Source: an archaeon (lineage in GTDB: Archaea; Nanobdellota; Nanobdellia; Pacearchaeales; GW2011-AR1). From it: a DNA stretch of 64,000 nt. Of this stretch, positions 7,464-48,061 are shown in pieces (position 1 is the first letter of the stretch; every line of letters starts with the position of its first letter). Position numbers and translations under genes: made by a program. The notes beneath the pieces were generated by a model that was given only the letters and a program-made list of their open reading frames with translations, made no database searches and was not told the origin of the DNA. The stretch lies in contig JBDRCQ010000015.1 of assembly GCA_043821585.1 (NCBI GenBank), positions 2,909 through 66,908 on the forward strand, read 5' to 3'.

Positions 7464-7545
7464 GCCGATGTTGGGCAGTGGTAGCCCGCTTGCTTGGAGA
7501 GCAAGTTTCTTCACCGATATGCAGGTTCGATTCCTGCCATCGGCG
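7464..7545 (+). tRNA. atypical tRNA-like gene. The anticodon loop reads GGA (Ser), but the D-arm is class I and the 15-nt variable region is unstructured.
   Basis: Acceptor GCCGATG/CATCGGC plus G73. D-arm GGGC-AGTGGTA-GCCC. Anticodon stem CTTGC/GCAAG with loop TTGGAGA. T-arm GCAGG-TTCGATT-CCTGC. Whether it is an intact tRNA cannot be judged by eye. Confidence 0.5.
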
Positions 7546-7624
7546 TTTAGAATCTCACCTGGAATACTCACTTCGTTCGCATACGACTCGCTTGTGGCTG
7601 TCGGATACTCACTTCGTTCGCATA

Positions 7625-7648
7625 CAGGTTCGATTCCTGCTATCGGCG
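7625..7648 (+). repeat. duplicated, slightly degenerate tRNA 3' fragment (CAGGTTCGATTCCTGCTATCGGCG)
   Basis: Copy of the T-arm and 3' acceptor of the upstream tRNA with 2 substitutions. It is preceded by two 21-bp direct repeats ATACTCACTTCGTTCGCATAC (7564-7584, 7604-7624). Confidence 0.5.
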
Positions 7649-7652
7649 TTTT

Positions 7653-12763: not shown

Positions 12764-13087
12764 TTGTTCTTGAGGTATTCTTGTGGAAAAATATTTAAGG
12801 GTTTGGTTTTAGTTTGGGGCATGTGTGGGAAATATCTTCGAAGAGCGGCTCTTTTTTTTGTTTATTCAGCTATTTCTTTAAATGCAGGTAATTGTGCTTA
12901 TAGGTGCACTGATGATTATTTGCAGGCAACGGAGTTTGGCGAGGAGCGATCAATGGATAACGGTCTTTTTAGGGCTGTCGGGGCGGTTAATGGTCTTTTG
13001 GTTGGGACAGGAATTTGGGCTACTTGGCCACTTTATCGATTGATTAGAAAAGGAGAGTTAAAAGAAGATAGACAAAGGATTGATTAA
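12764..13087 (+). CDS. hypothetical protein
   Basis: ORF only, with a C-terminal hydrophobic segment. Weak support. Confidence 0.25.
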   Translation: MFLRYSCGKIFKGLVLVWGMCGKYLRRAALFFVYSAISLNAGNCAYRCTDDYLQATEFGEERSMDNGLFRAVGAVNGLLVGTGIWATWPLYRLIRKGELKEDRQRID

Positions 13088-13392
13088 TCCTTCATTTCGA
13101 TTTTGATTTGCACGCTTCGTGGGATTTGAAGTTTCATAATTGGGTGGAGAATTCGGTCTTCGGCGGGGATGTCGATGATTCGGCGGTGTACGCGCATTTC
13201 AAACCTGTCAAAGGTTGCTGTGCCTGCACCGCAAGGGGATTTTCGTGTAGCTACCTTCAGTTTTCGAGTAGGTAATGGGATTGGGCCTCGCATCACGACG
13301 CCGGCTCTTTGAGTAATTTCGCGGATCGATTCAATTACCTGATTGATCGGCGCGATTTCGATACTGTTCAATTTGATTCTAACCTTTGCCAT
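13084..13392 (-). CDS. rps10: 30S ribosomal protein S10 (uS10)
   Basis: MAKVRIKLNSIEIAPINQVIESIREITQRAGVVMRGPIPLPTRKLKVATRKSPCG is the uS10 signature. Confidence 0.9.
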   Translation of the reverse strand: MAKVRIKLNSIEIAPINQVIESIREITQRAGVVMRGPIPLPTRKLKVATRKSPCGAGTATFDRFEMRVHRRIIDIPAEDRILHPIMKLQIPRSVQIKIEMKD

Positions 13393-13455: not shown

Positions 13456-13689
13456 CTAACTTTTGTATGTTTTGCTAAATCTGATTAAATGTAGCGCAAA
13501 TTGGGGATTCGGGTTCCCACTTTTGAAATCTTCCGCCCCTTGCCGGGCTTGATCCTGCGCATCATTAAATTCTTGCGAGGTGCTGCTCCACGTGATATTT
13601 ACAATTACCCATGCAATTGCTGCGATTAGAATTATTGTCCCGATGATTATTAAAATTATACCTAATGTGCTAAGGCCCCTTTTTTCCAT
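13456..13689 (-). CDS. type IV pilin-like protein with class III signal peptide
   Basis: MEKRGLSTLGIILIIIGTIILIAAIA: a KRG|LS prepilin-peptidase-type site followed by a hydrophobic stretch. The same motif occurs in the two pilins at 25089 and 25553. Confidence 0.5.
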   Translation of the reverse strand: MEKRGLSTLGIILIIIGTIILIAAIAWVIVNITWSSTSQEFNDAQDQARQGAEDFKSGNPNPQFALHLIRFSKTYKS

Positions 13690-13733
13690 TGGTTTAATTG
13701 GAAACTCTGGTTTATAAGTTTTTTCTAAAACTT

Positions 13734-13748
13734 GGCTCTGTTGAAAAA
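13734..13748 (+). repeat. solo copy of the MITE-like terminal repeat GGCTCTGTTGAAAAA
   Basis: Same 15-mer as the left end of the element at 13841. Confidence 0.4.
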
Positions 13749-13840
13749 GTCTTAAAATAAAAGTGACATGTTAATCATTGAGGTGAAAAACATGTCAAAA
13801 AAACAAAGCAAACTGCATAAAAAAATCTATCAGTTGTTGA

Positions 13841-13988
13841 GGCTCTGTTGAAAATCTCTTTATTGTGGGCTTACGATTCCCCCTCCTTCCACTATTCTGC
13901 TTTCAGCAAAAGACCTTTCTTGTTCCTCTAAACTTGCATCCGCCCCAATCTATTGGCAAGCCTCAGTTTTGATTTTTTCAATAGAGCC
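13841..13988. mobile_element. MITE-like element or small-RNA locus, copy 1 (terminal inverted repeats GGCTCTGTTGAAAA / TTTTCAATAGAGCC)
   Basis: Imperfect terminal inverted repeats flank ~120 bp. The internal GGGCTTACGATTCCCCCTCC is shared with copy 2 at 27645. Confidence 0.5.
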
Positions 13989-14033
13989 CTAAAATTTAGG
14001 TAATTTTAAATAAATCTCTTTTCTTAATTTAGA

Positions 14034-25046: not shown

Positions 25047-25088
25047 AATATTCGAAACATTTATAAAGAAGTTGTTTTTAGATATGTA

Positions 25089-25538
25089 ATGAATAATAAA
25101 AAGGGGTTGAGCAATCTTGTTGCTACAGTTTTGATCGTTTTGTTGGCTTTAGCTGCTGTTGCGATAATTTGGGGATTCTTGAGACCTACTTTTGATGATG
25201 CTGCTACTACGACCGGTTTGAGGTCTGCATGTTTCTTAGTTGAGTTGGAAGCTACTGGTTGCTCTGTTGCTTCAAATGTTGCTACGGTTACATATAAGAC
25301 AATTTCTACTGATGATAAGTTTAGTGGAGTTGTTGCGGTTGTTGAAGATTCGGCTTCAGTTACTAATACTACAAGAGGTAGTGCTCCTGGTCCGCTTCAG
25401 TCTGTGAATGTGGATGTTGCTGTGCCGAATCCTCCTTATACTGCTCCTTTCGAGGCTAGAGTTGCTGCTGTCGTTTCCGATGGTGCTGGAAATGAGGAAG
25501 TGTGTGCTGAGTCAGCGAGCGTGGTTTGTGGGCCGTAA
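25089..25538 (+). CDS. type IV pilin-like protein (class III signal peptide)
   Basis: MNNKKGLSNLVATVLIVLLALAAVAI is an archaeal prepilin-type signal peptide. Confidence 0.6.
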   Translation: MNNKKGLSNLVATVLIVLLALAAVAIIWGFLRPTFDDAATTTGLRSACFLVELEATGCSVASNVATVTYKTISTDDKFSGVVAVVEDSASVTNTTRGSAPGPLQSVNVDVAVPNPPYTAPFEARVAAVVSDGAGNEEVCAESASVVCGP

Positions 25539-25552
25539 AGAGGTAAAGAGAA

Positions 25553-26146
25553 ATGATAAATAAAAGAGGACTAAGTAATCTTGTTGCAACGGTTTTGATC
25601 GTTTTGTTAGCTTTGGCTGCTGTTGCGATTGTTTGGGGATTCTTGAGGCCTATGTTTACTGATACTGGTACTGAAGTTAATTTGAGGTCGCAGTGCTTTA
25701 GCGTTGACGTTCAGCCGGTTATTTGTACTTATTCCAATAACTTGACTAATGGAAGTTATTTGGATGTGACTGCTCGTGCTCGAAATATGGCTGGCGATGC
25801 TGCTCAGGTGTCTGGCGTTATAGATAGAGTTGATGGCGCTACACAGGCGGAGAATACTCAGTCTGCGGGGACCCTTTTGGGCACTGTTACTTTTGACTTT
25901 GGAGTGCATGGTTCTGTTGATGTATCTGCGGATGCTCCAACCACTGAAGAAGAATATGCTTTGTTTGATGATTTTACTGTTGCGGGGATTGTTTCGGACG
26001 ATGCTGGAAACAGTGAGGCTTGCTCTGGTGAGACGATAGCTTGCACCTATCTTCCTAAGTGTAGTCCAAACTTGTGTGGCCTCTGTGCTGACTCCATTGA
26101 CTGTGGTTTGGCATCTTGTGCTTGGTCTGCAGGTGTTTGCTCTTAA
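25553..26146 (+). CDS. type IV pilin-like protein (class III signal peptide), Cys-rich C-terminus
   Basis: MINKRGLSNLVATVLIVLLALAAVAI is nearly identical to the neighbouring pilin's N-terminus. The C-terminus has CSPNLCGLCADSIDCGLASCAWSAGVC. Confidence 0.6.
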   Translation: MINKRGLSNLVATVLIVLLALAAVAIVWGFLRPMFTDTGTEVNLRSQCFSVDVQPVICTYSNNLTNGSYLDVTARARNMAGDAAQVSGVIDRVDGATQAENTQSAGTLLGTVTFDFGVHGSVDVSADAPTTEEEYALFDDFTVAGIVSDDAGNSEACSGETIACTYLPKCSPNLCGLCADSIDCGLASCAWSAGVCS

Positions 26147-26152
26147 TTTTTT

Positions 26153-26266
26153 AGTAATCTTTATTAACTTTGTTTTGCTGTTTTGGTTTAGTGACGTGAG
26201 TGTTGCTGTTTTGTAAAAAGAAGAAGCGAGGTGTGATGAAATAGAAGATGAGTGTTGACGTTAAGA
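26153..26266 (+). repeat. direct repeat copy 1: promoter region plus the first 6-8 codons (MSVDVK...) of the 514-aa gene, here truncated
   Basis: About 90% identical to 27825-27936. The embedded ATG at 26248 runs only 20 codons to a stop. Confidence 0.7.
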
Positions 26267-26367
26267 TATTTGTGACTAAGGGCTTGTTGAATCTTAATGA
26301 ACAAGATTAGTCCTTTTTGTGCAATGGCAATGAAAGGATTTATAAACTTTGTTTTTGTGGTTTAGGC

Positions 26368-27636
26368 ATGCTATCTGAAGAACAGATAAAGGGAATACTG
26401 CTGGAACAACGGAAAAATTTGCTTAGCAAGGCATTTGGTGTGGAGAGAGCTGTCTTGAAGGAGATTGAGTCAAAGATTAAACTCCCACACGTTGTTGTTC
26501 TAACTGGGCTTCGTAGGAGTGGAAAATCTACTCTCTTGAGGCAGTTGGTAAAAAGGCAATGTAATGATGAAGACTTTTATTATATTAATTTTGAAGATGA
26601 AAGACTATTTAATTTTCCTGCCGAAGAGTTTAATGTTCTTTATGAGTCTTTAGTTGGTTTGTTTGGGAAAAAGAAAACATTCTTTTTAGATGAGATTCAA
26701 AACGTAAGAAATTTTGAGACCTTCGTTAGGAGATTCTATGAAGAAGGATTTAAGTTTTTTATAACTGGTTCAAGCGCTACATTGTTGAGCAAAGAACTTG
26801 GGACGAAACTTACCGGAAGACATGTGGATATTGTTGTAAAGCCTTTTTCTTTTTTAGAATTCTTGTCATTGCAAGGATTTGACATGAAAAAAGATGCTGC
26901 ATACATAACCGAGTCCAGGGTAGAAATTAAAAAATACTTTGATAAATATTTGGTGATGGGGGGAATGCCTGAATATCTGGTTTATGATGATCGTGAGCTA
27001 TTAACAAGGGTTTATGAAGATACTGTTTTGAAAGATATTGCGGTAAGGCATAACGTGGACAATGTTTTGGTCTTAAGAAATTTGTATTCTTTTTTAATTT
27101 CTAATTTTGCTAATAAGTTTAGTTATAACTCTTTGAAACAAGTTACAGATATTCGAAGCGTTAATACTGTCAAAAAATTTATACAGTATCTTGAAGACAC
27201 TTATTTTATTAGGGTTGTTTCAAAGTTTGATCACTCTTTGAAGAAGCAGTTAGTTAATGATAAGAAAGTTTACGTTGTCGATAATGGGTTTGTCGGGGCG
27301 TTGTCTAAGAAGCTAACGAAAGACAATGGATGGTTATTAGAAAATTTAGTGTTTAATTCTTTAAACCGAGAAGAAAGTGTTTTTTACTACTCCAATAAGT
27401 GCGAATGCGATTTTATAACGGTTAAAGGTAAAACTGCGACTAAAGCAATTCAGGTTTGTTATGACCTGAACGAAAGCAATAGAAATAGGGAAATTTTAGG
27501 ATTGCAGGAAGCGATGGAGGCGCTTAATTTATCGGAGGGGCTTCTTTTGACTAACTCGCTGGAAGAGGAAATTAAACTGGGAAGAAAGAAGATACGAGTC
27601 TTGCCTGTTTGGAAGTGGCTCTTTACAGAAAATTAG
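26368..27636 (+). CDS. AAA+ ATPase (AAA_14 + DUF4143-type)
   Basis: VVLTGLRRSGKSTLL (Walker A), FFLDEIQ (Walker B). The C-terminal DUF4143-like region contains ...CECDFI. The track start 26317 is less likely than ATG 26368 (MLSEEQIKG). Confidence 0.75.
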   Translation: MLSEEQIKGILLEQRKNLLSKAFGVERAVLKEIESKIKLPHVVVLTGLRRSGKSTLLRQLVKRQCNDEDFYYINFEDERLFNFPAEEFNVLYESLVGLFGKKKTFFLDEIQNVRNFETFVRRFYEEGFKFFITGSSATLLSKELGTKLTGRHVDIVVKPFSFLEFLSLQGFDMKKDAAYITESRVEIKKYFDKYLVMGGMPEYLVYDDRELLTRVYEDTVLKDIAVRHNVDNVLVLRNLYSFLISNFANKFSYNSLKQVTDIRSVNTVKKFIQYLEDTYFIRVVSKFDHSLKKQLVNDKKVYVVDNGFVGALSKKLTKDNGWLLENLVFNSLNREESVFYYSNKCECDFITVKGKTATKAIQVCYDLNESNRNREILGLQEAMEALNLSEGLLLTNSLEEEIKLGRKKIRVLPVWKWLFTEN

Positions 27637-27644
27637 GTTTCAGG

Positions 27645-27816
27645 TTCTGTTGACGGGCTTACGACTCCCTCCTATGTCCCACTTTTAGCTGGAATCTCCC
27701 CCCGTTCCAATTATTTAGATAAACCTGAACGCGCCGCAATTGGTTGCGGCGGCGTCTTGGAATATCAACTCGCTTCGCTCGTTATGCGGCGCGTTTTCTG
27801 ACTTTTTCAACAGAGC
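27645..27816. mobile_element. MITE-like element or small-RNA locus, copy 2 (TTCTGTTGAC...TTTTTCAACAGAGC terminal inverted repeats)
   Basis: Shares terminal repeats and the internal GGGCTTACGACTCCCTCC with copy 1. Contains a perfect GC hairpin GCGCCGCAATTGGTTGCGGCGGCG. Confidence 0.5.
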
Positions 27817-27824
27817 AGAGGCCT

Positions 27825-27936
27825 TAGTAATCTTTATTAACTTTGTTTTGCTGTTTAGGTTTAGTGACGTGAGTGTTGCTGTTTTGTGAAAAAGAAGCGA
27901 GGTGTAATGAAGTAGAAAATGAGTGTTGATGTTAAG
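27825..27936 (+). repeat. direct repeat copy 2 (intact promoter and 5' end of the 514-aa gene)
   Basis: See copy 1. Confidence 0.7.
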
Positions 27937-29463
27937 AACCTGATTGCTGCGATAAGCCCTGATGTGTATTGTGATCCTAGCGTTAGGAATGATGTTAAGA
28001 AACTTGTGAAGAAAGAGGGATATATTGTTGCTGCGGGGAAGGCGAAGCTTGTTGAGTCGGTGTATGCAGATGTTTATCACTTGATGTTAACGAAGGGTGC
28101 GTTGAGTAAGGCTGGATTGAAAGCTCCTGTTGAGCAGCACACGTTGGTTTATGATGCTTTTGCCCAGAGTTTGGAGCCTGTTTATTTCTGGATTCTGGAT
28201 TTTGCTGAGAGCCTTTACGGCGGAGGGGTTGATAAATTAACAGACAACTTTGTTTCTTCGGCAGGGAGCGGCTTTTTTGCGGAGATGCAAGGCCGTGCGA
28301 CTCGAATGCAAGAAGAAGCTATGAAGATGATGCAAACGGCAGGAGTGTTGACTAAATCGGTGATTCAGATTATTTATGATCTTAAGGAATTTAAGTTAAG
28401 GTTGAGGCAGTATGAAGACTATCGCAAGCCTAAGAATCCTGGGATGAAGAATGCGGCGTTGCTTTCATTGAAACAGATTTGGATGGATAATGTTGACATA
28501 AAAAGAGGAAATGGAAGCATTAACGGGCTAGCTCAGAGTTTGGATTTTGTTACGATCAGGGACGCTTTCATGGTTGTAAACTCGTTAGAGAGCTTGAAGA
28601 AGCTGGATTTAAATGATAGAGTAAAAAGAATACTTGAACAGAGGGTTTCGGAGTTCTTTAGGTGGATTGATGAGTCCGAGAGAGAGCTAAATAAACGGTA
28701 CAACATTGAAAAGACTTATCTGAGGAGCCAGGTTAACTCTTTGAAGATTTACTCTAGGTGGGCTAAACCCTATTTTAAGGCCGCTAGACAATTGGAGCAA
28801 AACGCTACGTCTGATGCGAGCGTTGTTAATGCGTTTAATACATCTGTTTTCGAATTGGTTTTGTTGGTAAAGGGGAAGTATGATCCTGCAAAGGATGTCG
28901 CCAATGGGGAGCTGCCAAAGGTTGCTGCATCGGGGAAATTTAGGAAGCAGGTTCCCATTGGGTTGATTGAGTTTAAGTTTAGAAGTATTCCTGATAGGAC
29001 TGACCAAAAAGGGGGCTATTCTTTTAGGGGAAAGGTTAATGTTAAATTTACAGGTCTTGCATTGAATGAAGATGAGCTAAAAACCTTAAAGAAAAAAGTT
29101 GAGGAAGACGACTTTGGGGAGGTTTTTAAGATGGTCGAGGGTGCAACTACCGAAAGCCTTGGTGCTTTGATGGAAGATATAAATGAGTTTTTGGATGATG
29201 CTAGTGAGATCAGGTGGGAAGAAAAGAAAAGTCAGACGAAGGCTAGCGATGATGTGAATCCATTCTCTGCGTTGTTTGACTTTGCTAAAAAGGAAGAGGG
29301 GGGCAAGGATTATGCTGAGGGGCAGATACCTAAAGATAATTTTTGGGAGGCCATCCTTAGATCTCAGGCTATTTTGGATGCGAGATTGAAGTGCAGAAAG
29401 CTTTACGATACTTACAAGAAGGCCCATGGCATGCTTGCATTCCCGCCGACTGTGAAATTATAA
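27919..29463 (+). CDS. hypothetical protein (514 aa), ORFan
   Basis: Long ORF with no recognisable motifs. Both its ends are involved in duplications. Confidence 0.55.
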   Translation: MSVDVKNLIAAISPDVYCDPSVRNDVKKLVKKEGYIVAAGKAKLVESVYADVYHLMLTKGALSKAGLKAPVEQHTLVYDAFAQSLEPVYFWILDFAESLYGGGVDKLTDNFVSSAGSGFFAEMQGRATRMQEEAMKMMQTAGVLTKSVIQIIYDLKEFKLRLRQYEDYRKPKNPGMKNAALLSLKQIWMDNVDIKRGNGSINGLAQSLDFVTIRDAFMVVNSLESLKKLDLNDRVKRILEQRVSEFFRWIDESERELNKRYNIEKTYLRSQVNSLKIYSRWAKPYFKAARQLEQNATSDASVVNAFNTSVFELVLLVKGKYDPAKDVANGELPKVAASGKFRKQVPIGLIEFKFRSIPDRTDQKGGYSFRGKVNVKFTGLALNEDELKTLKKKVEEDDFGEVFKMVEGATTESLGALMEDINEFLDDASEIRWEEKKSQTKASDDVNPFSALFDFAKKEEGGKDYAEGQIPKDNFWEAILRSQAILDARLKCRKLYDTYKKAHGMLAFPPTVKL

Positions 29464-29480
29464 TTTTTCTGAATTTGGCC
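29428..29480 (+). repeat. direct repeat a (last ~12 codons + stop + 20 nt of the 514-aa gene)
   Basis: GTGAAATTATAATTTTTCTGAATTTGGCC is exactly repeated at 29670-29698. The upstream 20 nt are repeated with substitutions. Confidence 0.6.
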
Positions 29481-29649
29481 TTTTCATTAGGTATAGGGGG
29501 ATGGTTTATAGCACGCTGCGCTGTAAGAAACCTTATCAGTTTCTTACCAACTTCCTTTTGCAATACTGCTCAGGGCTGGTTCTTCGCTCATCTGCGCTGC
29601 GAACCTGCTCGCTTTTGGCTGTGCGGTTTCTCGCTAGGATTTGCGAAGA

Positions 29650-29698
29650 TGCCTGCATTTCTTCCTGCGGTGAAATTATAATTTTTCTGAATTTGGCC
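29650..29698 (+). repeat. direct repeat b (degenerate copy of the gene 3' end)
   Basis: Flanks a ~170-bp insert (29481-29649) together with repeat a. Confidence 0.6.
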
Positions 29699-29746
29699 AT
29701 TACAGGGCCTCTAGTGAAGGTTTAAATATTTGTTTAACATCTGTTT

Positions 29747-44808: not shown

Positions 44809-45114
44809 TCATACAAGTTCTTCTACAAACTCTTCTTTTTTAGATAAGTTCGCTCTGTATACTCTAGGGAAACCATTTCCTCTACTAAATTTCACTCTTT
44901 GAACAAAACCCCTTTCAACGTAAGGTTCAAGAAAACTATGTATTTCACTTTCATGCCCTCTTGTTCGAGGTTCAGGATTATCGTAGTTCCAAACAATTTC
45001 AGATGGATTAAAATATCTTTCCGGATCATCTATAGTTTCAGTTAGTTTCACTAAGGATGTGAGCATTTTTCTTTGAATTTCATTTGTTTCTTGAGTTATC
45101 TTCATAGAAACCAC
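44809..45114 (-). CDS. hypothetical protein (101 aa)
   Basis: ORF only. Confidence 0.35.
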   Translation of the reverse strand: MVSMKITQETNEIQRKMLTSLVKLTETIDDPERYFNPSEIVWNYDNPEPRTRGHESEIHSFLEPYVERGFVQRVKFSRGNGFPRVYRANLSKKEEFVEELV

Positions 45115-45857: not shown

Positions 45858-46116
45858 TTTTCTAACAAACCTTTTTCTATAATTGTCTCCGCGTCCACTT
45901 CAGGAATCAAACGGAATTAAATCCCAATGCCACGTCTAAGCTTATCAATCAACTAGAACAAGTTTCTAATTACTTACTGCTCTCTCTTCTGGATTGTGTA
46001 GGCGCACTTACTGCACTTCCACTTTTCGAAAACATCCTCTTTGTAAGAGAAAGGTAATAGAACTCCCTCCCCGCACTCTGGACATTTTGGAAAAATTCCC
46101 ATGTCTTTGCTTTCCA

Positions 46117-46292
46117 TAACTGTTTGTGGGAAGAAGGGCTTTTAAGTTTTGCGGATTTGATCTGAGGTGAAATTGGACGCTTCGCGTCTTGTTATATCAT
46201 TCGCTATGCTCGCGAATTATCGTACCACCACCCCCGAAGGACCGAGGGACGAGAGGGTTTGGTAAACCTCAATCTCCTGCTTTTTCAACAGA
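46117..46292. mobile_element. degenerate third copy of the MITE-like element
   Basis: Left end AACTGTTTGTGGG (compare TTCTGTTGACGGG) and right end TTTTTCAACAGAACTCTG. Internal CGCTTCGC..GTTAT...CGCG resembles copy 2. Confidence 0.3.
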
Positions 46293-46334
46293 ACTCTGCT
46301 TGTGGAAAAGTTTTAAAAGCGAGTTTGGTGCGAA

Positions 46335-47096
46335 TTGTTTATGGTACTGATAGACATTCACCTTGAAGGGATCAAGAAAGAACGTTTCTTTGATAATGAT
46401 CCGACGAAGTTACTTAGAGAGATATTGACTAGAAATGTGCCTGTTGTGCTTTCTTTACCGCCGTGGATGGAAAATTATTGGATGGAGTCTGAGAAGGGAC
46501 CTGAGACTATTGAGCTGGCGCGAGAGGTTGTTAAAAGGCCTGGAAGTTTCCTTGGACAGCAAGGGAATATGCATCGGTGTAGTTATCCGCATGGGTTAGT
46601 TGATCCCTGGCATGAGAATTACTGTCTTTGGGGCCCTAGAAAGAGTGCTAAGGAACAGAGGAATTTTATGACTGAGGGGAGGGATAGATTGAGTGAGTTT
46701 ATGGATGTCGAGCCGAAAGTGTATTGTCCGCCTAATCATTTGTGGGATAATACTACATTGCATGTGGCAGATGAAATGGGCTATACTCATGTAACTGATA
46801 AGGCGATGATTCCGTTGGCACCGTATCGATTCGGGGGTTTGATTGTTGTTCCTGAAGGGGATATGCGGAAAGGAGATTTTATGAATGCTGCAGCTTATAT
46901 TCATTATGATGAATTGGATAGCCATAGGGAATTTTATAGGCAGGCGATGCAGGGTTCTATATCGCTTGCAGACATTACTCCGGAAAGAGTTTCTCAAAAG
47001 TTGATTGACAGGAATCGGAGAATGAAACATATGCATAAGATTGCAAGAGATCTTGTTAGGATGCCCCAGACTGCTTGGAGAACCTTAAGGAGTTAG
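46335..47096 (+). CDS. hypothetical protein (253 aa)
   Basis: ORF. Several conserved-looking His/Cys/Trp positions but no assignable family. Confidence 0.5.
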   Translation: MFMVLIDIHLEGIKKERFFDNDPTKLLREILTRNVPVVLSLPPWMENYWMESEKGPETIELAREVVKRPGSFLGQQGNMHRCSYPHGLVDPWHENYCLWGPRKSAKEQRNFMTEGRDRLSEFMDVEPKVYCPPNHLWDNTTLHVADEMGYTHVTDKAMIPLAPYRFGGLIVVPEGDMRKGDFMNAAAYIHYDELDSHREFYRQAMQGSISLADITPERVSQKLIDRNRRMKHMHKIARDLVRMPQTAWRTLRS

Positions 47097-47118: not shown

Positions 47119-47643
47119 GTGGTTGTCATGACAGATAAAAAACCTGCGGAGAATAAAAATCCTGATGCGTCTAAAATTGTTGTAAGGAGTTCTAAGGTTC
47201 ATGGCAACGGGGTCTTCGCGGCTCGTGACATTGCGAAAGGCGAGAAAGTAATTGAGTATGTTGGACGGATTGTTACCAAGGATGAGGCTGACAAGATAGC
47301 GGATGAGCAACTTGAGAAATCTAATGGGCACAAGGATTGTGGGGGCGTTTATATTTTTGAGTTAAATAAGAAGTATGACCTTGACGGGAATGTCGAGTGG
47401 AATCCTGCTCGTTATATTAATCATTCTTGTGATCCTAATTGTGAAACGGAAGGGGACGATGAGCACATTTGGATTGAGGCTATGAGGGATATCAAGAAAA
47501 GGGAGGAGTTGAGCTATGATTACTGTTACGATCTTGATAACTGGGACGAGCATCCTTGTAAGTGTGGAGCTTCAAACTGTGTTGGTTATATTGTTAACGA
47601 GAAGCTGCGTGGGAAGTTGGAAGAGTTGAAGAAGAAGCGTTAA
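47119..47643 (+). CDS. SET-domain protein-lysine methyltransferase
   Basis: RYINHSCDPNCE (NHSCxPN), ELSYDY (ELxxDY), post-SET CKCGASNC. Confidence 0.8.
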   Translation: MVVMTDKKPAENKNPDASKIVVRSSKVHGNGVFAARDIAKGEKVIEYVGRIVTKDEADKIADEQLEKSNGHKDCGGVYIFELNKKYDLDGNVEWNPARYINHSCDPNCETEGDDEHIWIEAMRDIKKREELSYDYCYDLDNWDEHPCKCGASNCVGYIVNEKLRGKLEELKKKR

Positions 47644-47861
47644 TATCGGTCAAAAGCGCTTGATCTTATGATTTCAGCTTTTCTTTTTTGTTCTGCTTGT
47701 TTTGCTAGATAGACGGGGCATTTGCGATGTTCAAAGGTGTAACATGTCCTTCTTGCTTCATCTTCTTCAGCTTGGTCGCTTAGCCATGCTGCTTCGGGGC
47801 CGCATTTCGCCGTGTAGGGACATTCGCCTATTCCTAGTGCGCCTAAGATTCGAAGTAACAT
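47640..47861 (-). CDS. hypothetical small Cys-containing protein
   Basis: ORF only. 4-nt overlap with the SET gene 3' end on the opposite strand. Confidence 0.3.
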   Translation of the reverse strand: MLLRILGALGIGECPYTAKCGPEAAWLSDQAEEDEARRTCYTFEHRKCPVYLAKQAEQKRKAEIIRSSAFDRY

Positions 47862-47882: not shown

Positions 47883-48061
47883 TTAATAAATATTACTGTT
47901 AGCCGGACTCTGTCCGGAATTACCTTTCTGGTTGATTTTACGAATCCCCCATTTTTCGACTGTCGTTGAATCCCGCCCTTAACCCGCCTTCCCTCCCCAC
48001 ATCTAGATAGGTAAAATCAACAAATTTCGGACAGAGCCTGTTAGCCGCAAATATTTATTAA
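47883..48061. repeat. ~180-bp nested inverted-repeat element (long imperfect hairpin; MITE-like or structured RNA)
   Basis: Outer inverted repeat TTAATAAATATT/AATATTTATTAA, middle GGACTCTGTCCG/CGGACAGAGCC, inner GGTTGATTTTAC/GTAAAATCAAC. Direct CTGTTAGCC in both arms. Confidence 0.5.

Follow-up and report, generated by a model that had tools for sequence, protein, structure and literature searches.

Among archaea, the SM elements of Sulfolobus are examples of MITEs (miniature inverted-repeat transposable elements). The Correia or NEMIS elements of Neisseria are small, bounded by terminal inverted repeats (TIRs) and able to form long hairpins; they lie beside genes and can affect promoters. 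The Ty3 retrotransposon integrates at RNA polymerase III promoters via TFIIIB, which consists of TBP and Brf1. Duplications of 9 bp are made by DDE families of insertion sequences such as IS4, IS256 and ISLre2, which are candidate mobilisers for the elements described here, as is an ISL3-like family. MITEs have already been reported in DPANN genomes (PMC11602168), and insertion sequences of the ISL3 family together with their MITEs carry the TIR GGCTCTTCG... and 8-bp direct repeats (PMC11448079, PMC6305408). New in the present work are one more MITE family, of a known kind, and a statistically strong positional rule relative to archaeal promoters.

Results

Host genome and promoter architecture

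The window, by which we mean the whole 64-kb stretch of DNA that was analysed, comes from a DPANN archaeon, a Pacearchaeota/Nanoarchaeota-like MAG with a compact genome. The best matches of its S10 protein (13084-13392, - strand) are named Pacearchaeota or Nanoarchaeota, and the 514-aa protein encoded by the gene at 27919 is 100% identical to hypothetical protein ABH864_04895 [archaeon]. Promoters in the window are very regular. We trained a TATA weight matrix on 35 window promoters of genes with an upstream gap that do not adjoin an element, and the best TATA 8-mer is TTTAAATA, CTTAAAAA or TTTATTAA. In 13 of the 35 its last base precedes the start codon by exactly 21 nt, a distance that points to mostly leaderless mRNAs. 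Several listed ORF starts (e.g. 48074, 46335, 26317) are probably too long by a few codons.

Anatomy of the repeat family

The original prediction had described a repeat family with inverted termini and an internal conserved block, and these motifs do recur far above chance. With up to two mismatches, the terminus GGCTCTGTTGAAAA occurs five times (13734+, 13841+, 13975-, 27804-, 46282-) against 0.99 expected, a count that 0 of 100 shuffles reach. The block GGGCTTACGAYTCCC is present at 13867 and at 27655, each time just inside the left terminus, where 0.1 occurrences are expected, and the core TCAAYAGARC is found eight times (0.74 expected). Copies 1 and 2 (E1 and E2 in Table 1) align through the further internal blocks CTTTYAGC, GTTCC, TAAACYTG and CGCCSCAAT. 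Across the family, termini of about 14 bp read GRCTCTGT...ACAGAGYC and include GGCTCTGTTGAAAA and GRCTCTGTCCGGAA; the interior is C-rich with one conserved block, TTACGAWTCCC, and a second inverted repeat is subterminal. Full-length copies measure about 130-255 bp and are non-coding. All four window copies are in + orientation. Each of the window's 2-kb bins has a GC skew above zero, between +0.06 and +0.38, and E1, E2 and E4 are C-rich on that same strand (skew -0.12 to -0.33).

Table 1. Copies of the repeat family in the window, with their target-site duplications (TSDs), the TATA boxes that face them and the reconstructed empty sites
Feature	Position	Strand	Sequence	Remarks
Composite copy	13734..13988	+	termini GGCTCTGTTGA / TCAATAGAGCC, 1 mismatch	255 bp; outer left TIR, 93-bp extra segment and core copy E1; 9-bp repeat at flanks; among the two hits of the unbiased TIR and TSD scan
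Left TSD of composite copy	13725..13733		CTAAAACTT	directly adjoins the terminus; 8/9 identical to 13989-13997
Right TSD of composite copy	13989..13997		CTAAAATTT	
Outer left TIR of composite copy	13734..13747	+	GGCTCTGTTGAAAA	the 'solo terminus' of the original prediction
Extra 93-bp segment	13748..13840	+		between the two left TIRs of the composite copy
Core copy E1	13841..13988	+		148 bp; left TIR 13841-13854, conserved block 13867-13886, right TIR 13975-13988
Copy E2	27643..27817	+	left TIR GGTTCTGTTGAC	175 bp; block 27655-27669, right TIR 27804-27817
Copy E3	46129..46295	+		167 bp; 3' end well conserved, 5' TIR lost
Copy E4	47906..48038	+	TIR GACTCTGTCCGGAA / TTTCGGACAGAGCC	133 bp; second subfamily
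Left TSD of E4	47897..47905		TGTTAGCCG	identical to 48039-48047, 9/9
Right TSD of E4	48039..48047		TGTTAGCCG	
TATA box of 77-aa gene 13456-13689	13711..13718	-	CTTATAAA	15 bp from element end; 21 nt before ATG; weight-matrix score 9.9
TATA box of gene 14034	14005..14012	+	TTTAAATA	16 bp from element end; 21 nt before ATG; weight-matrix score 10.6
TATA box of 514-aa gene 27919	27833..27840	+	TTTATTAA	15 bp from E2 end
TATA box of gene at 46335/46341	46311..46318	+	TTTTAAAA	15 bp from E3 end
TATA box of gene 47640-47861	47883..47890	-	TTTATTAA	15 bp from E4 left end; 21 nt before ATG
TATA box of gene with ATG 48083	48054..48061	+	TTTATTAA	15 bp from E4 right end; 21 nt before ATG
Reconstructed empty site, E4			TTAATAAA - TATTAC - TGTTAGCCG - CAAATA - TTTATTAA	left TATA, spacer, 9 bp, spacer, right TATA
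Reconstructed empty site, composite copy			TTTATAAG - TTTTTT - CTAAAACTT - AGGTAAT - TTTAAATA	left TATA, spacer, 9 bp, spacer, right TATA

The two arms of the TIR match at 13 of 14 positions in E1 and at 12 of 14 in E4, which has in addition an 11-bp subterminal second inverted repeat (GTTGATTTTAC / GTAAAATCAAC). The match extends over 13 bp in an element from the related locus L025 described below and is partial in E2, and E3 keeps a TIR at its 3' end only. The inverted termini said to be shared by copies 1 and 2 hold for the 3' side, but the 5' terminus of copy 2 resembles that of copy 1 only in part. E2 also carries a GC-rich palindrome at 27730-27793 (CGCGCCGCAATTGGTTGCGGCGGCG ... TGCGGCGCG) that is absent from E1 and E4 and is possibly a nested small insertion.

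What had been taken for a solo terminus at 13734 is instead the outer left end of a larger unit with the layout TIR, extra segment, TIR, core, TIR, whose flanks agree at 8/9 positions. The 23-nt stretch 13735-13757 shows 91% complementarity to 27794-27816. The extra segment contains a TATA-like TTAAAATA, a hairpin with a perfect 9-bp stem (TGACATGTT...AACATGTCA), a strong GAGGTG ribosome-binding motif and an ORF of 19-27 codons whose stop codon lies inside the next TIR. The segment is perhaps the captured 5' fragment of a gene.

The degenerate third copy proposed earlier is recovered as E3, with a good 3' end of which about 34 nt can be aligned to copy 1, and without a 5' inverted repeat. Its borders are set by an 8/9 direct repeat, CTGTTTGTG (46120-46128) and CTGCTTGTG (46296-46304). 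A longer flanking repeat of about 26 bp around E3 is not significant alone (153/2000 shuffles). To the left, the - strand ORF 45974-46117 encodes a 47-aa zinc-ribbon protein (CPEC...CSKC) and is probably unannotated. Its TATA box, 21 nt before the ATG, is the - strand CTTAAAAG within the left end of E3. The left end of E3 therefore now supplies the promoter of this ORF or has been overwritten by it.

A fourth copy, E4, is absent from the list in the original prediction. It shares terminal CTCTGT/ACAGAG with E1, and its block TTACGAATCCCCC at 47938-47950 stands at the same offset as TTACGATTCCCCC of E1 and matches it in 12 of 13 positions. The copies are highly divergent from one another, and nhmmer profiles of one subfamily miss the other; with these profiles, neither the window nor about 150 kb of related loci yielded additional copies. 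Strict exact-pattern scans of genome, metagenome and viral contig collections, which do not include the source genome, gave no further members, and their matches were chance hits in high-GC bacterial or viral coding DNA. We also judged as chance the 17-18 nt that two other loci, L014 and L004, share with the elements. A second motif, CTCGCTTCGCTCG-like and given in the original prediction as CGCTTCGC, finds no support from BLAST; a family built on it would have joined E2, E3, the tRNA-Ser region and 29487-29648, and it was rejected. A coding function was rejected as well: ORFs inside the copies reach just 20-35 codons, none is conserved between copies, and the small ORFs of E1 and E2 end alike but read the conserved block in different frames.

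Target-site duplications and filled and empty sites

Terminal repeats and target-site duplications had been left to be defined by alignment of the copies; the duplication is 9 bp and the TIR about 14 bp. The flanking 9-mers match at 9/9 positions for E4 and for the L025 element, at 8/9 for the composite copy and for E3, and at 5/9 for E2 (TAGGTTTCA / GAGGCCTTA). We searched the 64 kb in an unbiased manner for 11-nt inverted repeats (at most one mismatch) with arms 40-300 bp apart that adjoin an 8-11-nt direct repeat (at most one mismatch). Only the composite copy and E4 were returned, while the same scan of 20 locally shuffled windows gave a mean of 0.05 hits.

Two family members were found in the closest relatives, of which the nearest shares 97% identity in S10 and 84% amino acid identity in the 514-aa protein (L025). 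The loci L023 and L024 carry a short 62-bp version between S10 and a divergent gene. L025 has a 131-bp element of the E4 type (subfamily 2) upstream of the orthologue of the 514-aa gene, with termini GGCGTTGTCCGGAA / CTCCGGACAACGTC and a perfect 9-bp duplication, AACTTACTA. At the promoter of the 514-aa gene, the window thus carries a subfamily-1 copy and L025 one of subfamily 2. In the more distant L026, L027 and L028, at 70-75% identity, this promoter (TA-GAAATC-TTTATTAAG) is empty, and its TATA box is conserved across the orthologous promoters.

Duplications together with filled and empty orthologous sites are the signature of transposition. The MITE reading put forward in the original prediction gains from this: TIRs, small size, the lack of a credible ORF, 9-bp duplications, several copies and a filled/empty polymorphism all agree with it. 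We conclude that the repeats are probably a family of non-autonomous DNA transposons (MITEs) in a DPANN archaeon, divided into two subfamilies. Counted against this reading are the 5/9 flank match of E2, the lost 5' TIR of E3 and the high divergence of the copies, which is unlike a recently amplified MITE burst. Transposase and integrase domains are absent from 40 window ORFs scanned with Pfam (all of at least 190 aa and nine shorter ones), and we infer that the mobilising transposase is encoded elsewhere and binds the element ends.

Folding of the elements

The same copies could in principle be small structured RNA genes or cis-acting RNA elements whose paired ends form an RNA helix. This is unlikely in our view, even though several observations speak for it. 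Folds of the + strand are better than those of shuffled sequences, with z = -3.5 for E1, -3.2 for E2, -5.1 for E4 and -6.9 for the L025 element. The terminal helix is kept across subfamilies, with two of its eight pairs changed on both sides; by inspection of the sequence, three of the four terminal mismatches would be G-U on the + strand. The copies all have one orientation relative to the downstream gene, and E4 and the L025 element both form an outer and a second stem as well as a small internal hairpin. This hairpin is at the same position in the two but differs in sequence, which could reflect selection on structure. However, a consensus fold of four copies retains only eight terminal pairs, and inverted repeats yield such pairs anyway. 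For the - strand of E1, the fold is not better than those of shuffled sequences (z = -1.55). No Rfam family matches the elements even at E = 10 (Rfam 15, three loci: nothing at gathering thresholds and only chance matches of 10-15 bits at E <= 10). Direct repeats of 9 bp and empty orthologous sites are traits of inserted DNA and not of a resident RNA gene, and the spacing of the flanking TATA boxes fits the adjacent leaderless genes and not the element. The two readings are moreover compatible, as MITEs can be transcribed.

Spacing between element ends and TATA boxes

With the weight matrix we scored 45 nt outward of every terminus, and distances were counted from the element ends implied by the 9-bp duplication. 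At the nine gene-facing termini the best TATA box lies at 15, 16, 15, 15, 15, 15, 15, 15 and 18 bp, with scores of 6.5-11.4. The termini without a facing gene, which are the internal TIR at E1 and the left ends of E2 and of the L025 element, have no TATA box above a score of 3. In seven of the nine cases, an ATG follows the end of the TATA box by 21-22 nt, as at other leaderless genes here, so these are real promoters of the flanking leaderless genes. The distance of 15 bp is the sum of the 9-bp duplication and a 6-bp spacer of the size of a BRE. Two copies, E4 and the composite copy, each occupy the exact middle of a bidirectional promoter. When strong TATA boxes were searched generically for any nearby 12-nt inverted repeat, about 17 hits came up at every offset, which is background.

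The spacing rule is drawn from just six independent insertion events in two genomes and two subfamilies. In all six, the distance is 15-16 bp on at least one side, for which p is ~1e-6 if offsets are uniform over ~40 permitted positions. Such spacing does not follow from selection for intact core promoters alone. As the sequence on either side is re-created by the duplication, both BRE/TATA pairs would survive a cut at about 19 positions of a 21-bp spacer between two TATA boxes, and in L025 more than 100 nt of pseudo-leader upstream are open to insertion.

A fixed distance of this kind could also arise if the termini were transcription-factor sites, a UAS or an operator, held in place upstream of BRE/TATA, with the elements being non-mobile regulatory spacer DNA. 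The 15-16 bp between terminus and TATA box at eight of the nine gene-facing termini fit such sites, and archaeal activators such as Ptr2, TFB-RF1 and GvpE bind at that position upstream of TATA. The promoter-side terminus TTTTTCAAYAGAGC is also the best conserved part of E1, E2 and E3. We nevertheless consider this explanation very unlikely. The terminal bases vary by subfamily at equal distance (CAGAGCC vs CAACGTC in L025), the 9-bp repeats between terminus and BRE are in direct and not in mirror orientation, and the orthologous promoters of L026-L028 work without any such terminus. Factor binding also leaves the internal block and the paired second terminus unexplained.

The AAA+ ATPase insert and other duplications

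Copy E2 had been suggested to travel with the AAA+ ATPase gene beside it. This finds no support: in L025, a family member occupies the same promoter and the ATPase is absent. E2 is at the standard 15 bp from the downstream TATA box, so its position is explained by the promoter and not by the ATPase. The gene itself belongs to an insert of 1,557 bp, which holds the AAA_14/DUF4143 ATPase gene and E2 and is bracketed by 116-bp direct repeats (26151-26266 and 27824-27937, 90-97% identical). The repeated sequence comprises promoter, leader and initial 19 nt of the 514-aa gene. The insert looks like a Campbell-type integration of a circle carrying homologous DNA. L025 contains a degenerate copy of the pseudo-5' fragment of the 514-aa gene.

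It is highly improbable that 26280-27817 is a larger composite transposon with the ATPase, of which the small copies would be deletion derivatives or which would supply an ATPase-nuclease to mobilise them. A TIR-like GGGCTTGTTGAATC at 26280 (26280-26293) does resemble the left terminus of L023, GGGCTTTGTTGAAG; together with the right TIR of E2 it bounds the 1,557-bp segment within 6-14 nt, and the composite copy has the same layout of TIR, cargo, TIR, core and TIR. The region 26277-26302, however, aligns about equally with the promoter region right of E2 (AGGGCTT-GTTGAATCTT vs AGGCCTTAGTAATCTT), which makes the identity of GGGCTTGTTGAATC as a TIR ambiguous, although that alignment is itself weak (221/2000 shuffles score at least as high). 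The outer unit is without a 9-bp duplication, with 3-4 of 9 bases matching, no DDE-type domain was detected in the ATPase, and the promoter filled without an ATPase in L025 speaks against this reading too.

Several further duplications lie in the window. Direct repeats of at least 45 bp, 80% identical, at 44586-~44650 and 45230-~45295 copy the promoter of the NYN-domain gene (45255) together with its 5' coding end. They enclose an insert of 644 bp carrying a 101-aa gene (44809-45114, - strand), immediately after tRNA-Trp, and are a second case of the pattern formed by the 116-bp repeats. At the other end of the 514-aa gene, its last codons, its stop codon and downstream sequence are duplicated by 56-bp direct repeats (29431-29486 and 29649-29704, 84% identical) around a GC-rich non-coding insert of 162 nt. 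The 3' end of tRNA-Ser(GGA) (7519-7548) is repeated 103 nt downstream (7622-7651, 93% identical), with a degenerate copy at 7585-7604; both downstream copies are preceded by ATACTCACTTCGTTCGCATAC, and the repeats are possibly the att-site remnant of an integrated element. Two adjacent pilin/archaellin-like genes with class III signal peptides are 83% identical at their 5' ends (25088-25208 and 25552-25672) and are therefore tandem paralogues. L026-L028 also have this pair ahead of the 514-aa gene.

Discussion

For the MITE family, the following course of insertion can be proposed. A transposase from elsewhere would bind both element ends and integrate the element through a 9-bp staggered cut, which would leave the 9-bp target-site duplication. 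Insertion would be non-random, in that the duplicated 9 bp would stop 6 bp short of the TATA box, where the BRE has its upstream edge. This would put the end of the element 15-16 bp from TATA and leave the core promoters intact. In compact bidirectional promoters the element would land in the exact centre.

From six events, we favour targeted insertion at the upstream edge of BRE/TATA over later selection. As to how the target might be found, we tentatively suggest that the machinery recognises the TBP/TFB-DNA complex or its bend and cuts precisely 6 bp upstream of TATA, which is possible though short of probable. If promoters are indeed read in this way, archaea would have a counterpart of Ty3 integration directed by TFIIIB, and a mobile element could persist in a very compact genome without inactivating genes. 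If the spacing reflects target choice, it would explain the survival of mobile DNA amid intergenic spacers of 50-100 bp and would, to our knowledge, be the first indication of promoter-complex-guided transposition in archaea. In annotation, the elements can serve as markers of promoters, and the divergent promoters that they separate are set 130-250 bp apart.

Other classes of small repeats with cognate enzymes fit poorly. Integron attC sites, casposons and retron ncRNAs were rejected on repeat orientation, duplication length and the lack of a cognate enzyme: attC sites have RYYYAAC at the 5' and GTTRRRY at the 3' end, whereas the order is reversed here (GTTGAAAA at 5', TTTTCAAC at 3'), no integrase is found among the scanned ORFs, and attC recombination gives no 9-bp duplication.

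The elements resemble prokaryotic MITEs, including those of archaea and DPANN, in their size of 100-300 bp, their non-coding nature, TIRs and short target-site duplication, as well as in intergenic location, several copies per genome and presence or absence between relatives (PMC11602168). In contrast to typical MITE bursts, the present copies are far more divergent and keep a fixed 15-16 bp to TATA, and no transposase of a parent insertion sequence was found among the 40 window ORFs scanned. With ISL3, the subfamily-1 termini share the first six bases GGCTCT, and similarity ends after these 6 nt. The duplication is 9 bp here and 8 bp in ISL3, subfamily-2 ends are GACTCT / GGCGTT, and an ISL3 transposase is absent from the 40 window ORFs scanned. 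We therefore do not assign the elements to the ISL3-derived MITEs, which would have GGCTCTT and 8-bp repeats. Correia/NEMIS elements are bacterial, have a promoter and IHF sites of their own and create TA duplications, whereas the elements described here duplicate 9 bp and lie upstream of an archaeal BRE/TATA. Ty3 differs as a eukaryotic LTR retrotransposon with its own integrase, whereas the mechanism proposed here is inferred from six insertion sites. The likeness to Ty3 lies in a fixed, base-pair-precise distance from a promoter bound by TBP and a TFIIB-family protein, and in leaving that promoter intact.
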